From Candidatus Dormiibacterota bacterium (GTDB lineage: Bacteria > Chloroflexota > Dormibacteria > Aeolococcales > Bog-877): 54,899 bases of DNA. The stretch covers positions 1 through 54,899 of the forward strand of contig JBAUWA010000111.1 of the NCBI GenBank assembly GCA_049583555.1, read 5' to 3'. The notes under the pieces are model-generated. The model searched no databases. It worked only from the letters and a program-made list of their open reading frames with translations, and was not told the origin of the DNA. The translations under genes were made by a program, and so were the position numbers. Positions 15,487 to 30,154 of this stretch are shown here, piece by piece (position 1 is the stretch's first letter; each line of letters starts with the position of its first letter).

Positions 15487-16962
15487 CTATGCGGCTGGCA
15501 ACACGATGTCCAGCTGCAGCCCTCCCTCTGGGCCGGAACGGGCGCTGATCTTGCCTCCTGTGGCTTCGATGAATGCCTTGCAGATCACCAGCCCGACCCC
15601 ACTCGGCTCCGGCGGACGTGACTCCCCCCGGGTCTCGGGGACCGGGCTGAAGGCGGTCGCCAGTCGCTCGGCGCTTAGACCAGGCCCCTGGTCCACCACC
15701 TCAAGCTCCACCAGTCCGGCCTGATGTCGAGCTCGGATGGCGATCGGGGTCTGGTTGGGGGTGTAGCGAGCGGCATTCTCCAGCAGGTTGACCAGTACCC
15801 GGACGACCAAGGCTCGATCGACGCTGACCATCAGCTGGCCGTCGACCTCCACGGCTACGGGACGGTCCTCGAGCCGACCCTGCATCTCCTCCAAGGCTTC
15901 GTCGACCAGCTCACGAAGGACCGTGGGTGTTCTGACCAGGCGTCGCATTCCGGCCTCGATCCGATACATGTCGAGCAGATTCTTGACCATCCTGGTGAGG
16001 CGATCGGTCTCTTCCTCGGCGGTGAATAGGAGCTCGCCGCGATCGGCCTGGGAGAGCGCGACCGAAGGGTCAGCCAGATCTGATAGAGCCGCCTTGATCG
16101 AAGCCAGGGGTGTGCGCAGGTCGTGGGCTACCGAGGCCAGCAGGGCTCGCCTCCAGCTGTCAACTTCCCCCAGAACCCGACTCTGTAGCGCCTGTTCGCG
16201 CAGCTGAGCCCGCTCCACCGCGAGGGCGGCGTGGTTGGCGTAAGTGGTCAGCAGCTGCTGGTCGGTGGCGGAAAGCGGGGGGCCGACCAGCATCAGTACC
16301 CCTACCGGCCGCTCGGCGGTCGCCAGGGGAAGGGCCCGCAGGCCTCCTAAATCCGCCAGCGCCAGCGGTGTCGAGGCTGTTCCCGCGCGGAGGCCGCCGG
16401 TGAGGACCTCCTCGGGCAGAGGGTCGCCGGCTTGGGCGGCGACAGTCAGCTGCTCTCCCAGCGGGAGTAGCAGTGCGGCCGAGCTCAGGCGGAACTCCAA
16501 GCGGACGGTACTGACCACGGTCGAGAGGAGTTCCTGGAGGGGCTTGTCTCCGATCAGGAGGTCGGTCACTTCAAGCAGGTGTCGAGCATCGTCAGCCCGG
16601 CGACGGGCCTGCGCCCGGGCGAGCTGGAGCGCTGACACCACCCGGGCAACGATCAGCATCACCACCACGTAGACGCCCAGCGTCAGCCAATCGCGGTAGC
16701 CGGACACGGCGAGCGTCCCGTAGGGTCGGATGAAGAGAAAGTCGTAGCAAAGGAAGCCCACCGCGATCGCCAGTACGCCCGCGGACCAACCCCCGATTGC
16801 TACTCCAACGACTACCGGGATGATCAAGATCAAGCCAGTGGTGCTGGGTCCCAGGTGAGCGCGAGCGGGGAGCATCAGCGCGGCTAGGACCGCTATCGCC
16901 ACCACCGCCGCCGTCGACCCAGTCAGCCATCTTCGACGGCGCCAGTTCCGGAGATCAGCCAA
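15487..16962 (-). CDS. kdpD: KdpD sensor kinase, C-terminal part (4-TM DUF4118 + GAF-like + HisKA + HATPase)
   Basis: TTG start. TM block (...FLCYDFLFIRPYGTLAVSGYRDWLTL...), H-box SVAHDLRTPLASIKAA, N/G boxes (LLENAARYTP, DQGPGL, GVGLVICKAF). Confidence 0.85.
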   Translation of the reverse strand: MADLRNWRRRRWLTGSTAAVVAIAVLAALMLPARAHLGPSTTGLILIIPVVVGVAIGGWSAGVLAIAVGFLCYDFLFIRPYGTLAVSGYRDWLTLGVYVVVMLIVARVVSALQLARAQARRRADDARHLLEVTDLLIGDKPLQELLSTVVSTVRLEFRLSSAALLLPLGEQLTVAAQAGDPLPEEVLTGGLRAGTASTPLALADLGGLRALPLATAERPVGVLMLVGPPLSATDQQLLTTYANHAALAVERAQLREQALQSRVLGEVDSWRRALLASVAHDLRTPLASIKAALSDLADPSVALSQADRGELLFTAEEETDRLTRMVKNLLDMYRIEAGMRRLVRTPTVLRELVDEALEEMQGRLEDRPVAVEVDGQLMVSVDRALVVRVLVNLLENAARYTPNQTPIAIRARHQAGLVELEVVDQGPGLSAERLATAFSPVPETRGESRPPEPSGVGLVICKAFIEATGGKISARSGPEGGLQLDIVLPAA

Positions 16963-18145
16963 CGTCGGCGCCGCCTTCGTTGGCGTGGCCCTTGATCCGG
17001 GGAACCGGCGAGGCGGAGATGATGTGGATATCCAATCCGGCGGGTACGGCCTGCTTCAGGAGATGCTTGAGGACGCCGCCGCGGCCCAGTCCCCACCGGT
17101 GATCGCGATCAGAGCCCACCACCAACTGGGTGATGTTGTGGGCTCGGGCGAAAGCTATAAGGGTGGTCGCCACGTCGTCGCCACGCAGCGTCGACCACTC
17201 GCCGCCTAGGGAGATGGTGAGGGTTTTCAGCTCCTCCAAGCCAGCTTGGTCGGAGGAGTGGCCGGACTCGGCGGCGATCACGTGCACCACGTGGAGATCG
17301 CCCTTGGCTCGGGCGGCGATCCGAGCGGCTCGGCGCAGTACCCGATCGCTGCCAGGCGAGACCGAGGAGCCGACCAGGATGTGCTCGCCAGTCTCGACGG
17401 GAGGCGAAGACGCCGCCTCGACTTCGCGCAACAGCACCTCCTCGGTCTCGTCGGCCACGAACCGCAGGGCCAACTCCCGCAGGATGGTGAGGTTGTGGGT
17501 GGTGAAGAAGTTGGTGAGGGCCGCCGGCACCTTCTCGGGCGGGTAGACGTTGCCGTGAACGATCCTCCGCCGGAGTTGCTCGGGTGAGGAGTCGACCAGC
17601 TCGGTCTGATCGGCTCGGCGAACCACCCAGTCCGGCACCCGCTCTCTGACCGCGGTACCGGTCATTGCCTCGATACTCTCGGCGAGGCTCTCCAGGTGCT
17701 GGATGTTGACCGTGGTGATGACGTTGATCCCGTTCTCGAGGATCTCCAGCACGTCCTCCCAGCGCTTGGCGTGCCGGCCGCTGTTGGGGACGTTGGTATG
17801 GGCCAGCTCATCGATCAGCGCGAGCTGCGGCCGCCTGGCCAGGACAGCGTCGAGATCCATCTCCTCGAAGGCCGCCCCGCGATACTCGATCCGCTTGCGC
17901 GGCACCACCTCCAGGTCCTTCAGGGCCTCGGCCGTGTGGGGCCGGCCGTGGGTCTCGACGAAGCCCACCACCACGTCTCGGCCCCGCTCCCGCCGGCGCC
18001 AACCCTCGTCGAGCATCGCCACCGTTTTGCCAACCCCGGCGGCGGCCCCTAGGTAGATGCGGAACTTGCCGGGGGGCGCGACCAAGGTCTCGCTGGTTTC
18101 TGCCGTGGTCTGATCGCTGGGGATGACGTCCTCGTCGCTGGCCAT
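16955..18145 (-). CDS. kdpD: KdpD N-terminal sensor part (KdpD_N P-loop-like domain + Usp domain) as separate ORF
   Basis: FRIYLGAAAGVGKTVAMLDEG, LIDELAHTN, VNIQHLESL are KdpD N-terminal signatures. A Usp-like region follows (ILVGSSVSPGSDRVLRRAARIA...ITQLVVG). The stop overlaps the next ORF start by 8 nt (TTGGCTGA). Confidence 0.85.
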   Translation of the reverse strand: MASDEDVIPSDQTTAETSETLVAPPGKFRIYLGAAAGVGKTVAMLDEGWRRRERGRDVVVGFVETHGRPHTAEALKDLEVVPRKRIEYRGAAFEEMDLDAVLARRPQLALIDELAHTNVPNSGRHAKRWEDVLEILENGINVITTVNIQHLESLAESIEAMTGTAVRERVPDWVVRRADQTELVDSSPEQLRRRIVHGNVYPPEKVPAALTNFFTTHNLTILRELALRFVADETEEVLLREVEAASSPPVETGEHILVGSSVSPGSDRVLRRAARIAARAKGDLHVVHVIAAESGHSSDQAGLEELKTLTISLGGEWSTLRGDDVATTLIAFARAHNITQLVVGSDRDHRWGLGRGGVLKHLLKQAVPAGLDIHIISASPVPRIKGHANEGGADVG

Positions 18146-25173: not shown

Positions 25174-25953
25174 TTGAAGATCGCAGTCTTGGTCAAGCAG
25201 ATCCCTGACCCCTCCGGCGTCGGCAAGCTCGATCCCCAGACCCACCTCCTGGTCAGAGATCAGGGTGAGCTAGTGCTGGACCCAGGTGACTCCTATGGGG
25301 TCGAGGCCGCCTTGGAGGTCGCCGGAGCCGGTGACAACCAGGTGGTGGCGATCTCGATGGGGCCGGAGGGCGCGGTCGATGTCATTCGCAAAGCCATGGC
25401 GATGGGCGCCGCCGAGGGCGTTCTGATCAGTGATCAGCGGCTCCACGGTTCCGACGCTTTGGCCACGGCCCGGGTTCTGGCGGCAGCGGTCGCGAGGGTC
25501 CAGCCCGACCTGCTGATCGCTTGCACGGAGTCGACCGACGGCTACACCGGGATTGTCCCGGCCGCCATCGCCGAGCTGCTGGGCTGGCCCTCGCTCACCT
25601 TCGCCAAGCAGTTGGAAGTCACCGGCACCAAAGTGCGGATCCAACGCCAGACTCCCGAGGGCCACGACGTGGTCGAGGCGGACCTGCCAGCCGTGGTCAC
25701 GGTCACCGGTGGCATCAATGAGCCTCGGTATCCCACCCTCAAGGGGATCGTGGCCTCGAGGAGCCGTCCCCTGGAGCAACCATCCCTGGAGGACCTCGGC
25801 ATCGGCCCAGCCACGGTGGGCCGAGACGGCTCGGCCCAACAGATCGTCAAGGTCGAACCGGCGCCCCAGCGAGAGGGTGGCGAGGTGATCGAGGACGATG
25901 GCAGCGGCGCCCAGCGCATCGCCGACTACCTGGCCGAGCTCAAGGTGATCTGA
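25174..25953 (+). CDS. etfB: electron transfer flavoprotein beta subunit
   Basis: MKIAVLVKQIPDP... is the canonical EtfB/FixA N-terminus. 259 aa, TTG start. Confidence 0.9.
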   Translation: MKIAVLVKQIPDPSGVGKLDPQTHLLVRDQGELVLDPGDSYGVEAALEVAGAGDNQVVAISMGPEGAVDVIRKAMAMGAAEGVLISDQRLHGSDALATARVLAAAVARVQPDLLIACTESTDGYTGIVPAAIAELLGWPSLTFAKQLEVTGTKVRIQRQTPEGHDVVEADLPAVVTVTGGINEPRYPTLKGIVASRSRPLEQPSLEDLGIGPATVGRDGSAQQIVKVEPAPQREGGEVIEDDGSGAQRIADYLAELKVI

Positions 25954-25955
25954 GG

Positions 25956-26921
25956 GTGGCCAGGATCTTCGTCTATGTGGAGCTCTCGGGCTCCGAGCTC
26001 AGCCCGGTCTCCCAAGAGGTGCTGACCAAGGCACGCCAACTCGGAGACGTCGAGGCGGTGATCCTGGACCCCGACGCTGCTGGTGCGACCGAGGCGGTGG
26101 CGAGATTCGGTGCCAAGACCGTCTATGTGGGCGCCAACAAGGCCTACCGGGAATTCGTGGCTCAACCGGCGGCGGCGGCCCTGGCGACTCTGGTTGAAGA
26201 GCATCATCCTGACCTGATCCTCTTCGGGGCCACCTACGACGCCCGCGACATCTGCGCCCGCGCCAGCGCAAAACTGGGGCTGACGGTGGTGGCCAATGCC
26301 ACCGACGTGGAAGCTCGGGCCGGAGGGTTCGCAGCCGCGTCTTCGATCTTCGGAGGCACTCAGAACGTCCTCACCGAGCTCAGCGGCCCCAGCCCCTGCG
26401 TTCTGATGCGGCCCAAGTCGGTCGCGGCAGAGCCCGCTCCGGGCGGCTCGCCCAAGGTGGTCGAGGTGCCTCTGCCCCAGGAGGCGGCTCGCGGCGCCCG
26501 CCGTGTGGAGTCGGTGGTGGCGCCAGCCAGCGGTCCGACTCTGGAGGAGGCCAAGGTGGTGGTCAGCGGAGGCCGCGGGCTCCAAGATCCGGCCAACTTC
26601 GAGCTCCTGGAGAAGCTGGCGGCACTGCTCCACGGCGCCGTAGGAGCCAGCCGAGCCGTGGTCGACGCTGGCTGGGTGCCCTACGCACGTCAGGTGGGCC
26701 AGACCGGGAAGACGGTCAAGCCGGACCTATATCTTGCCTGCGGAATCAGCGGAGCCATGCAGCACACGGTGGGGATGAAGGGGGCCAAGCACATCGTTGC
26801 CATCAACCGGGACCGCGACGCGCCGATCTTCAGGATCTGCGACCTGGGCGTGGTCGGGGATGCCCTCAAGATCCTCCCTGCTCTGATCGCTGAGCTGGAG
26901 AGCCGCGGAGTAGCGGGTTGA
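25956..26921 (+). CDS. etfA: electron transfer flavoprotein alpha subunit
   Basis: C-terminal FAD-binding signature GASRAVVDAGWVPYARQVGQTGKTVKPDLYLACGISGAMQH. Lies 2 nt after etfB. Confidence 0.9.
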   Translation: MARIFVYVELSGSELSPVSQEVLTKARQLGDVEAVILDPDAAGATEAVARFGAKTVYVGANKAYREFVAQPAAAALATLVEEHHPDLILFGATYDARDICARASAKLGLTVVANATDVEARAGGFAAASSIFGGTQNVLTELSGPSPCVLMRPKSVAAEPAPGGSPKVVEVPLPQEAARGARRVESVVAPASGPTLEEAKVVVSGGRGLQDPANFELLEKLAALLHGAVGASRAVVDAGWVPYARQVGQTGKTVKPDLYLACGISGAMQHTVGMKGAKHIVAINRDRDAPIFRICDLGVVGDALKILPALIAELESRGVAG

Positions 26922-26958: not shown

Positions 26959-28293
26959 GTGACCGGCTCCGGCCTACTTGCCCTTCAGGCCGCCGACGGC
27001 GCCACCGTGACACTGGAACGCTATCCGATCCTGCTGGGTCGGAGCATGCCCGGCGGCACGGTGCCAGATGTCGACGTCAGCCACCTCGACCCCGACGAGG
27101 CGGTCGACAACCGCCACTGCGAGTTGAACCGGGTCCCGACCGGGATTGACGTCCACGACCTGGGGGGCGTCAGCGGGACTTGGGTGAACGGGCGCCGGCT
27201 GGCGCCGGGGGGTCGCGCCCTGTTGGAGGTGGACGGCACCATCCGGGTGGCGGGGGTGATGATGACCCTGGTTGAGGCGGCCGGGTCGTCACTGCCAGAG
27301 CTGGCCTCGATCCGGCCGGTGCCGGCAGCATCCCCGCCGTCTACCTGGCTCGAGAGTCGGCCGATCGGAGGAGTACCCCCGCCACCGTCGGCTGGACCCG
27401 CTGCCCTCGGCGAGGAGCCGGCCCCGGCGCGGCCCCGACCCTCCGAACTAGACCTAAGTGGAGCTCCAGTGATCGCCCGCGAGGCTCTAGAGCGGGGTGC
27501 GGAGGTGGTTCGGATCAGGTCTGGTTCGCCGCTGGAGGTGCTCAGCGATGAACGCTGGGAAGCGCAAGGCCGGCAGCTCTCCCGATCCGCGGCCTCGGAG
27601 GCGGTTGCGACTGCCCGGCGTGCTCTGGCGCTCCCAGAAGAAGCGACCAGCGGCGAGGGCCACTCGGGCGATGTCTGGCTCGAGTTCCTGGTACCTCCCC
27701 TCACCGACCGACCCTATTTGGCAGTCCGAGTCGCTGCGCGGGTGCCGGCGGAGTTGGAGCGGGGGGAGCTGGACACCGCTCTCCAAGCCGTCAAGGATGG
27801 CGACGCACTGTTGGTGGTTGGCCCCTGGCCGGAACCCGCCCTGGCAGCCCTGGCCGCAGGCTACGAGACGGGCTTCGCCAGCACTCGGGTGCTCAGCTTT
27901 GAGGGCGCCGGGTGGTGGGTGCCGCCGGGTTGGCCCGTCCTCGATCGGGACCAGGAAGGCGCTCTCGAGGAAGCGCTGACTTCGGGCGACCTTTTCCTCG
28001 ACCAACCCCCCGTAGTCGTCGTCGAGGCGCTGCTCAGGGCCATCCCCCGCCCCGGCGGCGGCACCGTCCTGGCCTTGCGAGGGCACTCCCTGATAGCCGG
28101 GCTGGAGCTGATCGCCAGGCAGGTCGACCCCTCGCAGCTGACCACCCCCAGTATCTGGCAGCGGGAGGAGGTGGCAAGGCTCTTTCCCCGCGCGCTCACC
28201 TGGCAGGCCAAGGGCTGGCGCTTCTGCGACGTCGGAGTCGACGGCCAGGGTCGCTGGTCGGCAGGGCTGTCGGCATTGGGAGGGAAGAGCTAG
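26959..28293 (+). CDS. FHA-domain protein with C-terminal degenerate PilT/GspE-like ATPase-core domain
   Basis: FHA signature (ILLGRS, NRHCEL, GVSGTWVNGRRL, IRVAGVMM), a Pro-rich linker, then a region colinear with secretion-ATPase motifs that lacks the catalytic residues (LLVVGPWPEPALAALA in place of Walker A). Confidence 0.6.
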   Translation: MTGSGLLALQAADGATVTLERYPILLGRSMPGGTVPDVDVSHLDPDEAVDNRHCELNRVPTGIDVHDLGGVSGTWVNGRRLAPGGRALLEVDGTIRVAGVMMTLVEAAGSSLPELASIRPVPAASPPSTWLESRPIGGVPPPPSAGPAALGEEPAPARPRPSELDLSGAPVIAREALERGAEVVRIRSGSPLEVLSDERWEAQGRQLSRSAASEAVATARRALALPEEATSGEGHSGDVWLEFLVPPLTDRPYLAVRVAARVPAELERGELDTALQAVKDGDALLVVGPWPEPALAALAAGYETGFASTRVLSFEGAGWWVPPGWPVLDRDQEGALEEALTSGDLFLDQPPVVVVEALLRAIPRPGGGTVLALRGHSLIAGLELIARQVDPSQLTTPSIWQREEVARLFPRALTWQAKGWRFCDVGVDGQGRWSAGLSALGGKS

Positions 28294-28295
28294 CT

Positions 28296-28463
28296 GTGGC
28301 CAGCGGTCTGCCCTCTCCCACGTCTGGGCCCTCGGTCACCAGTTATCTGGCGCTGGCACTGCTGGTGGCGGTGGTGCTGCTGCTGGTGGTGGTGACGGTG
28401 AATCCGGGGCTTCTGGGTCACCTTGACGGGTTGCGCCAGATGCTGGGGCTGCGCCGGGGCTGA
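28296..28463 (+). CDS. small single-pass membrane protein (55 aa)
   Basis: GTG 28296 lies 2 nt after the FHA gene stop. Encodes VASGLPSPTSGPSVTSYLALALLVAVVLLLVVVTVNPGLLGHLDGLRQMLGLRRG. High GC3. Only part of a longer track ORF in that frame. Confidence 0.4.
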   Translation: MASGLPSPTSGPSVTSYLALALLVAVVLLLVVVTVNPGLLGHLDGLRQMLGLRRG

Positions 28464-28495
28464 ACACAGAGCGGCGATGCGTTCACAATTGCGCC

Positions 28496-29101
28496 ATGCC
28501 GGTGCTGCTGCTGAACGCCTCGCTGCAACCTCTCAACGTCATCAGTCGACGTCGTCTGGTGGTGCTCCTGACCAAGGAGCGGGTTGCCTTCTTCGACGAC
28601 GCGGTTGAGCGGATGGTCGTCGAGGAGCTGGCCCAGCGCCGGCTCGGCGATGGTGTCATCGTGGTCCGGCTGCTGCGCAACATCATGGTGCCGCGGCGGA
28701 TGCTGCGTCCCAATCGCCGCAACCTGCTGCTGCGCGATGAGCACTGCTGCCAGTACTGCGGGGTGCGTGCCGCCCCTGCCGAGCTCACCATCGACCACGT
28801 GATTCCGGTTTCGCGCGGGGGGAATCCCGGTAGCTGGGAGAACCAGGTTGTCGCGTGCAAGCGCTGCAATGGGCGCAAGGCCAACCATCTCCCCGGCGAG
28901 GTACACCTGCGTCTGCGCCGTCCCCCGCGTCCGGTGGTGCAGGAGTACGCCCACCTGCTCTTCCTCCGCTACCCGGAGGTACGCAGCGCCTACGAGGACT
29001 TGGTGCGCTCGGTACTGCCCCACGGCGGAGGTGCCTCCGCCAGCCATCTGGGGGTGCGCGCCGAGGCGGTGGTCTCGGGTCTGGGCGCTGCCCAGATCTA
29101 G
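28496..29101 (+). CDS. HNH endonuclease (COG1403/McrA-like)
   Basis: CCQYCG...LTIDHVIPVSRGGNPGSWENQVVACKRCNGRKANH gives CxxC...DH...N...CxxC...H. N-terminal VLLLNASLQPLNVIS domain is typical of this family. Confidence 0.85.
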   Translation: MPVLLLNASLQPLNVISRRRLVVLLTKERVAFFDDAVERMVVEELAQRRLGDGVIVVRLLRNIMVPRRMLRPNRRNLLLRDEHCCQYCGVRAAPAELTIDHVIPVSRGGNPGSWENQVVACKRCNGRKANHLPGEVHLRLRRPPRPVVQEYAHLLFLRYPEVRSAYEDLVRSVLPHGGGASASHLGVRAEAVVSGLGAAQI

Positions 29102-29117: not shown

Positions 29118-29870
29118 TCAGTCCAGTTCCTGGGGCAGGTGTAGGGGAGGCTCCGGCAAGTACCTCGCCGCGGCCACGCCGGATTGGTCGATTCGGTCGA
29201 CCAGCTCCGAGGCGATGGCCATCGACCGGTGCAGTCCCCCAGTGCAGCCCACCGCCACCCGGAGCACCGAGCGGCGTTGCGCCTGGTAGAGCGGGACCAG
29301 GCGCAGCATCATCGGTAGGAACTGACCCAGCAGCTCCTGGGCGCCTGGCTGGGCCATTACGTACTCACGCACCATAGGGTCGGTGCCGGGCCGCTCCCGC
29401 ATCTCGGCAATCCAGTAGGGGCTGTCGAGGAAGCGGGTGTCGACGACCCAGTCGGCCTCGTGGGGGATGCCATCTCGGAAGGCGAAGGTGAAGCAGTCCA
29501 CCCTTAGCAGGTCGCGGTCACGCCAATCGTCCAGTAGCTGCCGGAGATAGGCCAAGGTGCTCTTGTCGAGCCCCAAGAGATGCCGGTGGGGCCGCCGGTC
29601 CGGCGGCCGAAAGCCGGGCCCTCTGGGGACGCCGATCTCAACCAGCCAGTAGCGGATTCCCTCCCGGTCTAGGGCGGCGACCCAGGTGTCTCCCAGGCGC
29701 TCGCTCACAACCAGAGCCAGATCGGGATCTGACTGCAGCCGGGCACGGACGCGCGCGGCGGGGTCGGATCCGGTCAGCTCTTCGCCGGGCAACTGGTAGC
29801 CAACCTTGGTGGCGAGAGTCTCCAGCTGGTCCCGGAAACGGTCCTCGCAAAGAATCACGACCAATGACAC
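29118..29870 (-). CDS. RapZ (YvcJ)-like protein with degenerate P-loop
   Basis: The C-terminal half matches RapZ (FRDGIPHEADWVVDTRFLDSPYW, VAVGCTGGLHRSMAIASEL). The N-terminus LVVILCEDRFRDQLETL replaces the GxSGxGKS Walker A. GTG 29870 with a GGAGA RBS is preferred over ATG 29984. Confidence 0.7.
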   Translation of the reverse strand: MSLVVILCEDRFRDQLETLATKVGYQLPGEELTGSDPAARVRARLQSDPDLALVVSERLGDTWVAALDREGIRYWLVEIGVPRGPGFRPPDRRPHRHLLGLDKSTLAYLRQLLDDWRDRDLLRVDCFTFAFRDGIPHEADWVVDTRFLDSPYWIAEMRERPGTDPMVREYVMAQPGAQELLGQFLPMMLRLVPLYQAQRRSVLRVAVGCTGGLHRSMAIASELVDRIDQSGVAAARYLPEPPLHLPQELD

Positions 29871-30154
29871 GGTGCTGGTCTCCGGTGGGAGGCCCTGGCG
29901 ATCGACCAAAGCCCATCTTGAGTGCGGCGGGCCCTTCCCAACCCTCCGAGCTGCGGATGCATCTTCGCACGGATGCCAAGTCAAATGGTGAGGGGAGAAC
30001 AGATTCCCAGCAGACTCTCAGTGCTGCGTGTGGCTCGCGGCGCGCTGATGGGTCCCGACCCGACCTCTCAAAAACCGGCCTTTTCCGCCTGCCGACCAGC
30101 GGGCCGCTGATCTCAGTCCCACCACGACCGGAGCCTGGCCCGACGTGTCCCGGA

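Follow-up and report, generated by a model that had tools for sequence, protein, structure and literature searches.

We describe a gene of the uncultured Dormibacterota lineage whose product, to judge from its predicted structure and from family-wide conservation, joins an FHA domain to an ATPase fold of the PilT/VirB11 class in which the catalytic motifs have been lost. The gene lies on the forward strand of a 54,899-nucleotide stretch of Candidatus Dormiibacterota DNA (contig JBAUWA010000111.1 of assembly GCA_049583555.1; hereafter the window) and encodes a protein that we call FHA-X, currently annotated only as 'FHA domain-containing protein'. Type IV pili, type II and type IV secretion, archaella and competence systems are universally driven by ATPases of the PilT/VirB11 class, which are normally treated as obligate enzymes. 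We consider it about 80% probable that FHA-X is an ancient pseudo-ATPase of this class that acts non-catalytically. A preliminary description of the same DNA had already proposed an FHA module fused to a dead PilT/GspE-class core at this position; the open reading frame is confirmed, all strings quoted for the protein (ILLGRS, NRHCEL, GVSGTWVNGRRL, LLVVGPWPEPALAALA, RVLSFEGAGWW, DLFLDQPPVVVVEAL and GGTVLALRGHSL) are found in it, and the central claim is supported by structural matches in Foldseek, family-wide motif loss and purifying selection. The gene, its parts and the small gene that follows it are laid out as follows:

26959..28293, + strand: coding sequence of FHA-X, 444 aa, with a GTG start and a TAG stop (28291-28293), from the list of open reading frames
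26959..27282, + strand: FHA domain with an atypical pocket, residues 1-108 (Pfam FHA, AlphaFold2 beta-sandwich, FHA alignments from the PDB)
27283..27435, + strand: disordered Pro-rich linker, residues 109-159, with W130 and VPPPPSA at 139-145 (model confidence, composition, conserved columns)
27436..27744, + strand: N2-like (PAS-like) domain of the secretion-ATPase fold, residues 160-262 (AlphaFold2, Foldseek span, hhalign register, selection)
27745..28272, + strand: RecA-like core without catalytic motifs, residues 263-438 (secondary-structure order collinear with GspE, selection)
27805..27843, + strand: vestigial Walker A, residues 283-295, a strand ALLVVG and PWPE followed by a helix
28045..28089, + strand: vestigial His box P363-R364-x-x-G367-G368-T369...S377, the densest conserved patch of the core (invariant columns; aligned to GspE TGHLVLSTLHTNS)
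28296..28463, + strand: gene of a 55-aa micro-protein with a GTG start 2 nt past the FHA-X stop (open reading frame, conserved motif)

The case for the fold is made by structure prediction. AlphaFold2, run with the family alignment, models the whole of FHA-X at a mean predicted local distance difference test score (pLDDT) of 83.7 with a confident two-domain module at residues 160-438, and a model of this C-terminal module alone (ca. 280 aa) reaches a pLDDT of 90.6 and a predicted TM-score (pTM) of 0.86; both models agree. When the full model was compared to the PDB with Foldseek, the best 50 matches were all PilT/VirB11-class ATPases (E 1.5e-11 to 4e-8, probability 1.00) with alignments of 270-355 columns that span the N2-like and RecA-like domains, and the module-only model gives the same list with a best E-value of 2.1e-11. 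These matches comprise PINA (5F4H, E 1.5e-11), DotB, TadA/CpaF, PilT, PilU, FlaI, HP0525/VirB11, PilB and PilF. Query-normalised TM-scores go up to 0.61 for apo CpaF (9e24_A) and 0.59 for FlaI and HP0525, and the CpaF structures 8rkd, 8rjf and 9e24 are among the best structural matches; the subfamily of origin is not separable by these values, with PINA, CpaF, DotB, PilT and FlaI giving similar E-values and TM-scores. The RecA-like part is predicted to follow the order beta-loop-alpha / beta / alpha-beta / alpha-beta-alpha and is thereby collinear with GspE, with a strand at 283-288, a short loop, a helix at 292-301, strand 310-313, helix 335-341, strand 345-348, helix 352-361, strand 369-374 and helix 378-389. 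The predicted models thus support a relationship of the C-terminal module to the PilT/VirB11 class.

The same relationship escapes every comparison at the level of sequence. PF00437 (T2SSE) gives no match at E<=10 in any of the 52 aligned FHA-X orthologs that underlie all motif, column and Pfam counts reported here, searches of Pfam, NCBIfam and the PDB (phmmer) with the single FHA-X protein did not detect similarity to T2SSE, and the family profile found no T2SSE match among PDB sequences. Profile-profile comparison by hhalign was likewise not significant, neither against E. coli YggR/HofB/GspE nor against a 123-sequence T2SSE alignment (E=0.32; both runs together E=0.32-0.68), the latter being composed mostly of gamma-proteobacterial GspE and hence less diverse as a profile than intended. 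The similarity to T2SSE-type ATPases expected in the preliminary description therefore stands for the predicted structure, where the best 50 matches belong to no other class, and fails for profiles, with PF00437 at 0/52. FHA-X illustrates a blind spot of annotation in that a module missed by Pfam, NCBIfam and comparison of hidden Markov models (HMMs) was revealed by structure prediction.

The loss of catalytic motifs can be read from a low-stringency, unconstrained hhalign path against a GspE/PilT/PilB profile that is collinear over 261 columns (E=0.32, not significant). This path puts the four strings quoted in the preliminary description opposite Walker A, Asp box, Walker B and His box and agrees with the secondary-structure order of the AlphaFold2 model. 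Its register is given here, with FHA-X before GspE:

N2 strand: GAEVVRI in FHA-X, ASDIHIE in GspE
N2 hairpin: SGEGH in FHA-X, PQDGR in GspE
Walker A: ALLVVGPWPE---PALAAL in FHA-X, IILVTGPTGSGKSTTLYAI in GspE
Asp box: VLSFEGAGWW in FHA-X, ILTVEDPVEY in GspE
Walker B: GDLFL--DQPP in FHA-X, DPDVVMVGEIRD in GspE
His box: GGGTVL-ALRGHS in FHA-X, LTGHLVLSTLHTNS in GspE

At the residue level, a mapping drawn from a collinear but non-significant path together with element order is well supported, not proven, and it reproduces the earlier reading that all four motifs are substituted. The P-loop of FHA-X is 3 residues shorter than that of GspE (consensus GPTGSGKS/T), carries neither Lys nor Ser/Thr and reads G-P/R-W/R-P-E; the pattern [AG]xxxxGK[ST] is absent from 52/52 orthologs, and the sole GKS of the window protein sits in its disordered tail (residues 442-444). 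Position 315, aligned to the Asp box, is variable (G/A/T/Q...), the place of the catalytic Glu and Walker B is taken by Pro-Pro (P350 in 46/52, P351 in 40/52), and the Arg of the N2 'QDGR' of GspE is H/Y/T in the family. At the former His box, the family reads G-G-T-V-L-A-L-x-x-x-S with no conserved His, the histidine positions being occupied by T369 and a variable residue. Because the P-loop, acidic, Glu, His and Arg residues are all lost, canonical ATP binding or hydrolysis should be impossible, and on its residues FHA-X is judged unable to carry out either. What the family retains are other positions: R220, L223, G234, G237, G281, W325, P363, R364, G367, G368 and S377 are invariant, and D238 and T369 are each conserved in 51/52.

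These changes are old and under selection. Ratios of non-synonymous to synonymous substitution rates (dN/dS; Nei-Gojobori, 11 close ortholog pairs) are 0.09-0.33 for the RecA-like domain, 0.07-0.25 for the N2-like domain and 0.13-0.26 for whole FHA-X. The preliminary description had asked whether loss of Walker A is conserved under purifying selection, and indeed not one of the 52 orthologs carries the motif while the core is constrained; close orthologs with an intact GxxGxGK[ST], which it had named as the finding that would speak against it, do not occur among them. A profile of the C-terminal module searched with HMMER against 1.84 billion representatives recovered 15 proteins; one, the TPR protein P0076, we rejected as a spurious match, the rest belong to the family or are fragments of it, and no active relative is found among these representatives. 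The most divergent members, P0072 and P0073, share the same architecture and have likewise lost the motifs, and they do not keep PRxxGGT. Because motif loss is family-wide and the core evolves at a dN/dS of 0.09-0.33, we interpret FHA-X as an ancient, selected pseudo-ATPase and not as a product of decay.

The family is confined to one lineage. Its nearest database relative, at 99% identity, comes from a Candidatus Dormibacterota metagenome-assembled genome (MAG), and the ca. 70 orthologous clusters (38-99% identity over the full length, nearly all of 420-457 aa) derive from MAGs labelled Dormibacterota or Dormibacteria. When GTDB was scanned with one genome for each species, ca. 40 species-level genomes of the Dormibacterota lineage carried the gene, and in these independent species assemblies the reading frame is unbroken at 420-486 aa. 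We take FHA-X to be ancient and vertically inherited. One MAG, SMAG_U14063, holds two different copies on separate contigs (L030 and L040, sharing 49% and 68% identity with the query); this points to a mixed bin. The FHA-X-bearing SMAG records L012, L017, L030 and L048 are titled Micrarchaeia, Nanopelagicaceae or Acidiferrales, which is probably mislabelling. An apparent natural loss of the C-terminal module in L046 (JAKBTP010000126.1, 6001-6560; a truncated FHA-X of 147 aa) was dismissed, as a 100-N scaffold gap falls within the gene and a normal FHA-X C-terminus and the micro-protein resume after it.

The FHA domain itself, recognised in the preliminary description, is borne out by profile and model. 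It is the sole Pfam domain of FHA-X (PF00498, residues 25-96, 31.2 bits with a cutoff of 20.7), is matched in 52/52 orthologs, forms a confident beta-sandwich over residues 1-108 in the AlphaFold2 model (pLDDT ~90) and shows a dN/dS of 0.05-0.10. FHA domains bind phosphothreonine (pThr) peptides through a site with five hallmark residues, which in Rad53 FHA1 numbering are G69, R70, S85, H88 and N107. Aligned independently with the solved FHA domains of Rv1747 and of a GGDEF-FHA protein, FHA-X keeps three of these five, and two are replaced family-wide; the replaced pair contacts the phosphate and the peptide backbone. G27, R28 and H53 do not vary and N51 is found in 32/52, while the phosphate-binding Ser of SxxH (S85) corresponds to D50 (D45/E5/A2 among the orthologs) and the Asn of the NGT loop (N107) to S72 (S42/G6/other). 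Because two residues that contact phosphate or peptide are replaced, one of them by an acidic residue, the coupling to phospho-threonine recognition that had been proposed is doubtful in its canonical form. We also note a sub-threshold match to PF16697 (Yop-YscD_cpl) in 52/52 members, with a best E-value of 7.7e-5 and, for the window protein, 22.3 bits against a cutoff of 33.2. FHA matches outside the family were found in the GTDB genomes only at L049-L051, where cyclic nucleotide (cNMP)-binding-FHA proteins lie beside recG and an FHA protein beside PP2C; no FHA-CpaF protein was among them.

Between the two folded parts runs the Pro-rich linker noted earlier, which our data bear out: 14 of its 51 residues are Pro (27%), and an AlphaFold2 pLDDT of <50 over residues 109-157 predicts disorder. 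Its dN/dS is 0.14-0.52, and among the orthologs W130, P140, P142, P143 and S144 are invariant, with V-P-P-P-P-S-A at 139-145. A short linear motif is likely here because these invariant columns sit within a disordered segment, and W130/VPPPPSA probably serve for docking or modification.

Directly downstream, FHA-X is accompanied by the micro-protein, whose product consists of MASGLPSPTSGPSVTSY, a hydrophobic helix of ~20 residues and NPGLLGHLDGLRQMLGLRRG, a layout that can be written as MASG-LPSPTSGPSVTSY, a transmembrane helix and GHLDGLRQMLGLRRG. Its open reading frame follows FHA-X in ca. 30 species with a nearly invariant motif L-P-x-P-T-S-G-P-S-V-x-x-Y (of which the Thr is Ser in some species), and this motif stays nearly invariant even where FHA-X drops to ~40% identity. 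The 52 clusters recovered with the micro-protein profile derive without exception from Dormibacterota-type MAGs, a range that matches that of FHA-X. In every case the start codon of the micro-protein overlaps the FHA-X stop or is 0-2 codons away from it, and the relative frame varies (0, +1, +2). Because the start stays at the FHA-X stop while the frame varies, the arrangement fits translational coupling by termination-reinitiation; a programmed frameshift or readthrough that would fuse the two products was rejected, since the frame differs among species and the start codon is never missing. The positive-inside rule would place the basic C-terminal tail in the cytoplasm and the invariant N-terminal motif outside.

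Two resemblances of the micro-protein were followed up. The succession of LPxPTSG, hydrophobic helix and Arg-rich tail, which makes up nearly the whole of its 55 aa, is superficially like an LPXTG-type sorting signal and has no profile support. In addition, its G-PSVT-[SA]-Y and hydrophobic helix are in exact register with the G/XXXXEY of Flp pilins (SG/ATAIEY), for which real Flp pilins from Phyllobacterium plasmids were used in the comparison. We discarded an identity as Flp/Fap type IVb pilin for want of statistical support: the micro-protein has no Flp_Fap match in Pfam, its motif is without the Glu, hhalign gives E=0.12, and the micro-protein HMM ranks real Flp 139 and 156 of 2002, no better than shuffled controls. 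The farther-reaching idea that FHA-X and the micro-protein are a fossil Tad/Flp pilus system, with descendants of a prepilin and of an FHA-bearing CpaF kept phylum-wide, after the remaining machine and all catalysis had been lost, as a new kind of membrane signalling or scaffold module and PRxxGGT...S possibly acting as ligand sensor, seems very unlikely to us.

Genes for a machine that FHA-X could serve are missing from its surroundings. As the preliminary description had stated for tad/pil/gsp partners, the 55-kb window holds no T2SSE ATPase, platform, pilin, prepilin peptidase or secretion gene, and it holds no Hanks-type kinase or PP2C either; tblastn and motif scans of ca. 45 related loci, reaching 6-8 kb around FHA-X and covering 600 kb in total, found no T2SSE ATPase, kinase or PP2C. 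The Ser/Thr kinase partners suggested earlier were thus not encountered in either set.

Taken together, we envisage that FHA-X descends from a PilT/VirB11-class motor with the layout of class III CpaF proteins and that it has kept the fold and lost catalysis. It would now be an oligomeric, non-catalytic scaffold or adaptor that keeps the assembly surfaces of PilT-class proteins. The micro-protein, co-produced by termination-reinitiation, would tether it to the membrane through its basic tail, predicted to be cytoplasmic, and so stand in for the platform proteins on which active PilT-like motors dock. The FHA domain, held on a flexible linker with W...VPPPPSA, would recruit a client, probably in a phospho-independent or otherwise non-canonical way given the Asp/Glu in place of its phosphate-binding Ser; the PRxxGGT...S patch, where the His box once lay, may have been kept for an interaction or a ligand. 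This specific picture of a membrane-tethered scaffold is tentative and, in our estimate, somewhat more likely to need revision than to hold, in distinction to the more general reading as a non-catalytic pseudo-ATPase.

Some alternatives accept the dead core and assign it a different task. The vestigial cleft (P363-R364, G367-G368-T369, S377 and G281) may bind a nucleotide, second messenger or phospho-ligand and make FHA-X a receptor or switch, or even a catalyst. The strongest conservation of the core does lie where, in active relatives, His-box residues contact the gamma-phosphate, a cluster of Gly-Gly-Thr, Arg and Ser chemically suits phosphate binding, and the low dN/dS of the core would be in line with such a site, yet the P-loop is 3 residues short and has neither Lys nor Ser/Thr, the Mg-coordinating and catalytic acidic positions are Pro-Pro (P350-P351) or variable, precedent is lacking, and the divergent P0072 and P0073 do without PRxxGGT, so that we regard this as unlikely. 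It is distinctly doubtful that FHA-X regulates a Tad or type IV pilus or another PilT-class machine encoded elsewhere by forming mixed or stacked rings or by competing for the platform, much as pseudokinases regulate kinases: neither the window (T2SSE ATPase, platform, pilin, prepilin peptidase) nor the flanks of the gene in ca. 45 genomes (T2SSE ATPase) offer such a machine, against which can be set the two-domain fold and FHA-disordered region layout shared with class III CpaF and the fact that the N2 and RecA-like domains, which form the protomer interfaces of this fold, are both under selection.

Alternatively, the FHA domain may read pThr in the canonical way, deposited by a Hanks-type kinase encoded elsewhere, with the dead ATPase as regulated output. 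An FHA profile above threshold in all members, the conservation of G27, R28 and H53 (and of N51 in 32/52) and the invariant Thr/Ser-Pro motifs in the linker (PPPPSA) and micro-protein (PTSGPS) would agree with this, but Ser is exchanged for Asp/Glu in 50/52 and Asn for Ser in 42/52, an acidic side chain would sit unfavourably close to the phosphate, window and flanks encode no kinase or phosphatase, and PTSGPS is predicted from the positive-inside rule to be extracytoplasmic, with its Thr being Ser in some species; we consider such a reader improbable. There is a negligible chance that FHA-X is instead a pseudogene in decay, that errors of sequencing or assembly produced it, or that AlphaFold hallucinated a common fold. 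All sequence-based T2SSE tests do fail and the truncated copy in L046 proved to be an assembly gap, but the frame is intact in ca. 40 independent species assemblies at an overall dN/dS of 0.13-0.26, two independent AlphaFold2 runs agree (pLDDT to 90.6, pTM 0.86), the best 50 Foldseek matches come from one superfamily, and the unconstrained hhalign path is collinear over 261 columns with the motifs in the expected register. Because of the conservation and selection data, this explanation is effectively refuted.

Several points weigh against our own preference for a non-catalytic pseudo-ATPase. Homology to T2SSE is drawn from predicted structure alone, with every sequence-based test non-significant, and the motif mapping comes from a non-significant hhalign path and element order and not from structural superposition. 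Non-canonical nucleotide binding is still compatible with the data, FHA-X is known from uncultured MAGs alone, its neighbours (etfBA, HNH and a rapZ-like gene) give no coherent pathway, and the fixed gene order could be core-genome synteny of a slowly rearranging lineage and not a sign of function.

This gene order, where contigs reach, is HD-domain protein / M20 peptidase / methyltransferase (-) / etfB / etfA / FHA-X / micro-protein / HNH / RapZ-C-domain protein (-), and the part from etfB over etfA, FHA-X and the micro-protein to HNH is fixed in ca. 40 species. The neighbouring features in the window are these:

25174..26921, + strand: etfB-etfA, directly upstream of FHA-X (Pfam ETF and ETF_alpha; synteny in 40/40 loci)
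28484-28489, + strand: CACAAT hexamer, 6-7 nt before the ATG of the HNH gene (invariant in 13/13 Dormibacterota loci examined)
28496-29101, + strand: HNH nuclease gene (Pfam HNH; the next gene in 35/35 loci that extend that far)

The gap between etfA and FHA-X is 37 nt and showed no promoter- or terminator-like site on the + strand in a scan, which is weak evidence, and etfBA and FHA-X are possibly on one transcript. Because CACAAT is probably a -10 box that yields a leaderless mRNA, HNH is likely to be transcribed independently of its neighbours. The HNH protein is unusually conserved, with 73-94% identity where FHA-X has 38-81%. We rejected a defence system composed of FHA-X, the micro-protein and HNH, given that PADLOC has no match for the former two and only generic ones for HNH (PtuB-like, Cas9-HNH), and this idea is further weakened because HNH appears to have its own leaderless promoter.

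The RapZ-like neighbour (29118-29984, - strand) matches only the C-terminal domain of RapZ (Pfam PapZ_C; NCBIfam RapZ positions 148-267/278). Canonical RapZ carries a Walker A in its N-terminal part; the N-terminal ca. 120 aa of the neighbour have none and read VSLVVILCEDRFRDQ at its place. A PapZ_C-only gene of ca. 250 aa is conserved in related genomes. The immediate neighbourhood of the pseudo-ATPase gene thus contains another case of a P-loop protein that has lost its P-loop. The rest of the window is housekeeping, including rpoD, dnaG, kdpABC, kdpDE, leuS, ppx and others. Here KdpD is split (15487-18145, - strand) into a KdpD sensor with Usp (16955-18145) and a DUF4118-GAF-HisKA-HATPase protein (15487-16962) encoded by overlapping open reading frames beside kdpE and kdpABC, and the same split is seen in L001.

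In all Dormibacterota genomes recovered, FHA-X and the micro-protein have the same housekeeping neighbours in fixed order, and this constancy makes it likely that they belong to the core cell biology of these globally abundant, uncultured soil bacteria. With its whole fold under purifying selection and its catalytic motifs gone, FHA-X would be a clear pseudo-enzyme of the PilT/VirB11 class, which implies that the fold has a selectable use other than catalysis, for example in scaffolding a ring, binding a platform or sensing a ligand. The double degeneracy of FHA pocket and ATPase site and the translational coupling to the micro-protein lead to concrete, testable hypotheses.

Among known systems, FHA-X shares the two-domain fold and the element order with the PilT/VirB11-class proteins of PF00437 (PilT, PilB, PilU, GspE/EpsE, DotB, HP0525 and FlaI). 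The match with the best E-value, the archaeal PilT-like helicase PINA (5F4H), illustrates that this fold is not confined to secretion. Members of the class are all active NTPases with four motifs, whereas FHA-X fails PF00437 and every motif; failing the profile, the four motifs and the genomic association and being without a three-helix bundle, it is operationally not a T2SSE member. A different likeness concerns the FHA part. In type III secretion systems, the cytoplasmic FHA-like domains of YscD/PrgH are phospho-independent scaffolds at a membrane machine, and FHA-X resembles them in its FHA fold with a non-canonical pocket and in its sub-threshold PF16697 match. Unlike FHA-X, YscD/PrgH are membrane-anchored ring components with periplasmic domains and no fusion to an ATPase fold, and the FHA-X locus is without a type III secretion system.

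The degenerate ATPase domains of EccC/EssC (PMC4925161) are comparable in that an NTPase fold was kept for assembly or regulation after the loss of catalysis and in the combination of FHA with ATPase-like domains in a system associated with the membrane. These proteins are, however, of the FtsK/SpoIIIE class, retain at least one active domain and are encoded in type VII secretion loci, while FHA-X is PilT-class, fully dead and found outside secretion loci. A limited full-text search of the literature turned up no characterised dead PilT-class protein, in keeping with the preliminary description, which knew of no characterised example, and nothing relevant on pili or FHA biology of Dormibacterota.

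The closest parallel in layout is found in class III CpaF proteins, which are active, mostly betaproteobacterial (e.g., Achromobacter xylosoxidans E3HIW0) and composed of FHA domain, disordered linker, three-helix bundle, N-terminal domain and ATPase domain (PMC12019362). FHA-X has the same order as class III CpaF/TadA in its FHA domain, intrinsically disordered region, N2/PAS-like domain and RecA-like domain, and CpaF is among its best structural matches. CpaF differs as an active hexameric ATPase with four motifs, a three-helix bundle and a place in tad loci (TadB/C, Flp, TadV), whereas FHA-X has a single short helix (171-178) where CpaF has the bundle, lies apart from any tad genes, shows no detectable sequence similarity to CpaF and has neither the canonical Ser nor the canonical Asn in its FHA pocket. 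Descent of FHA-X from a CpaF-type protein is probable but unproven, there being no sequence similarity to set CpaF apart from other subfamilies. What is known before is thus the layout of FHA domain, disordered linker and ATPase; what is new is a catalytically dead version that is restricted to one phylum and accompanied by a micro-protein partner.

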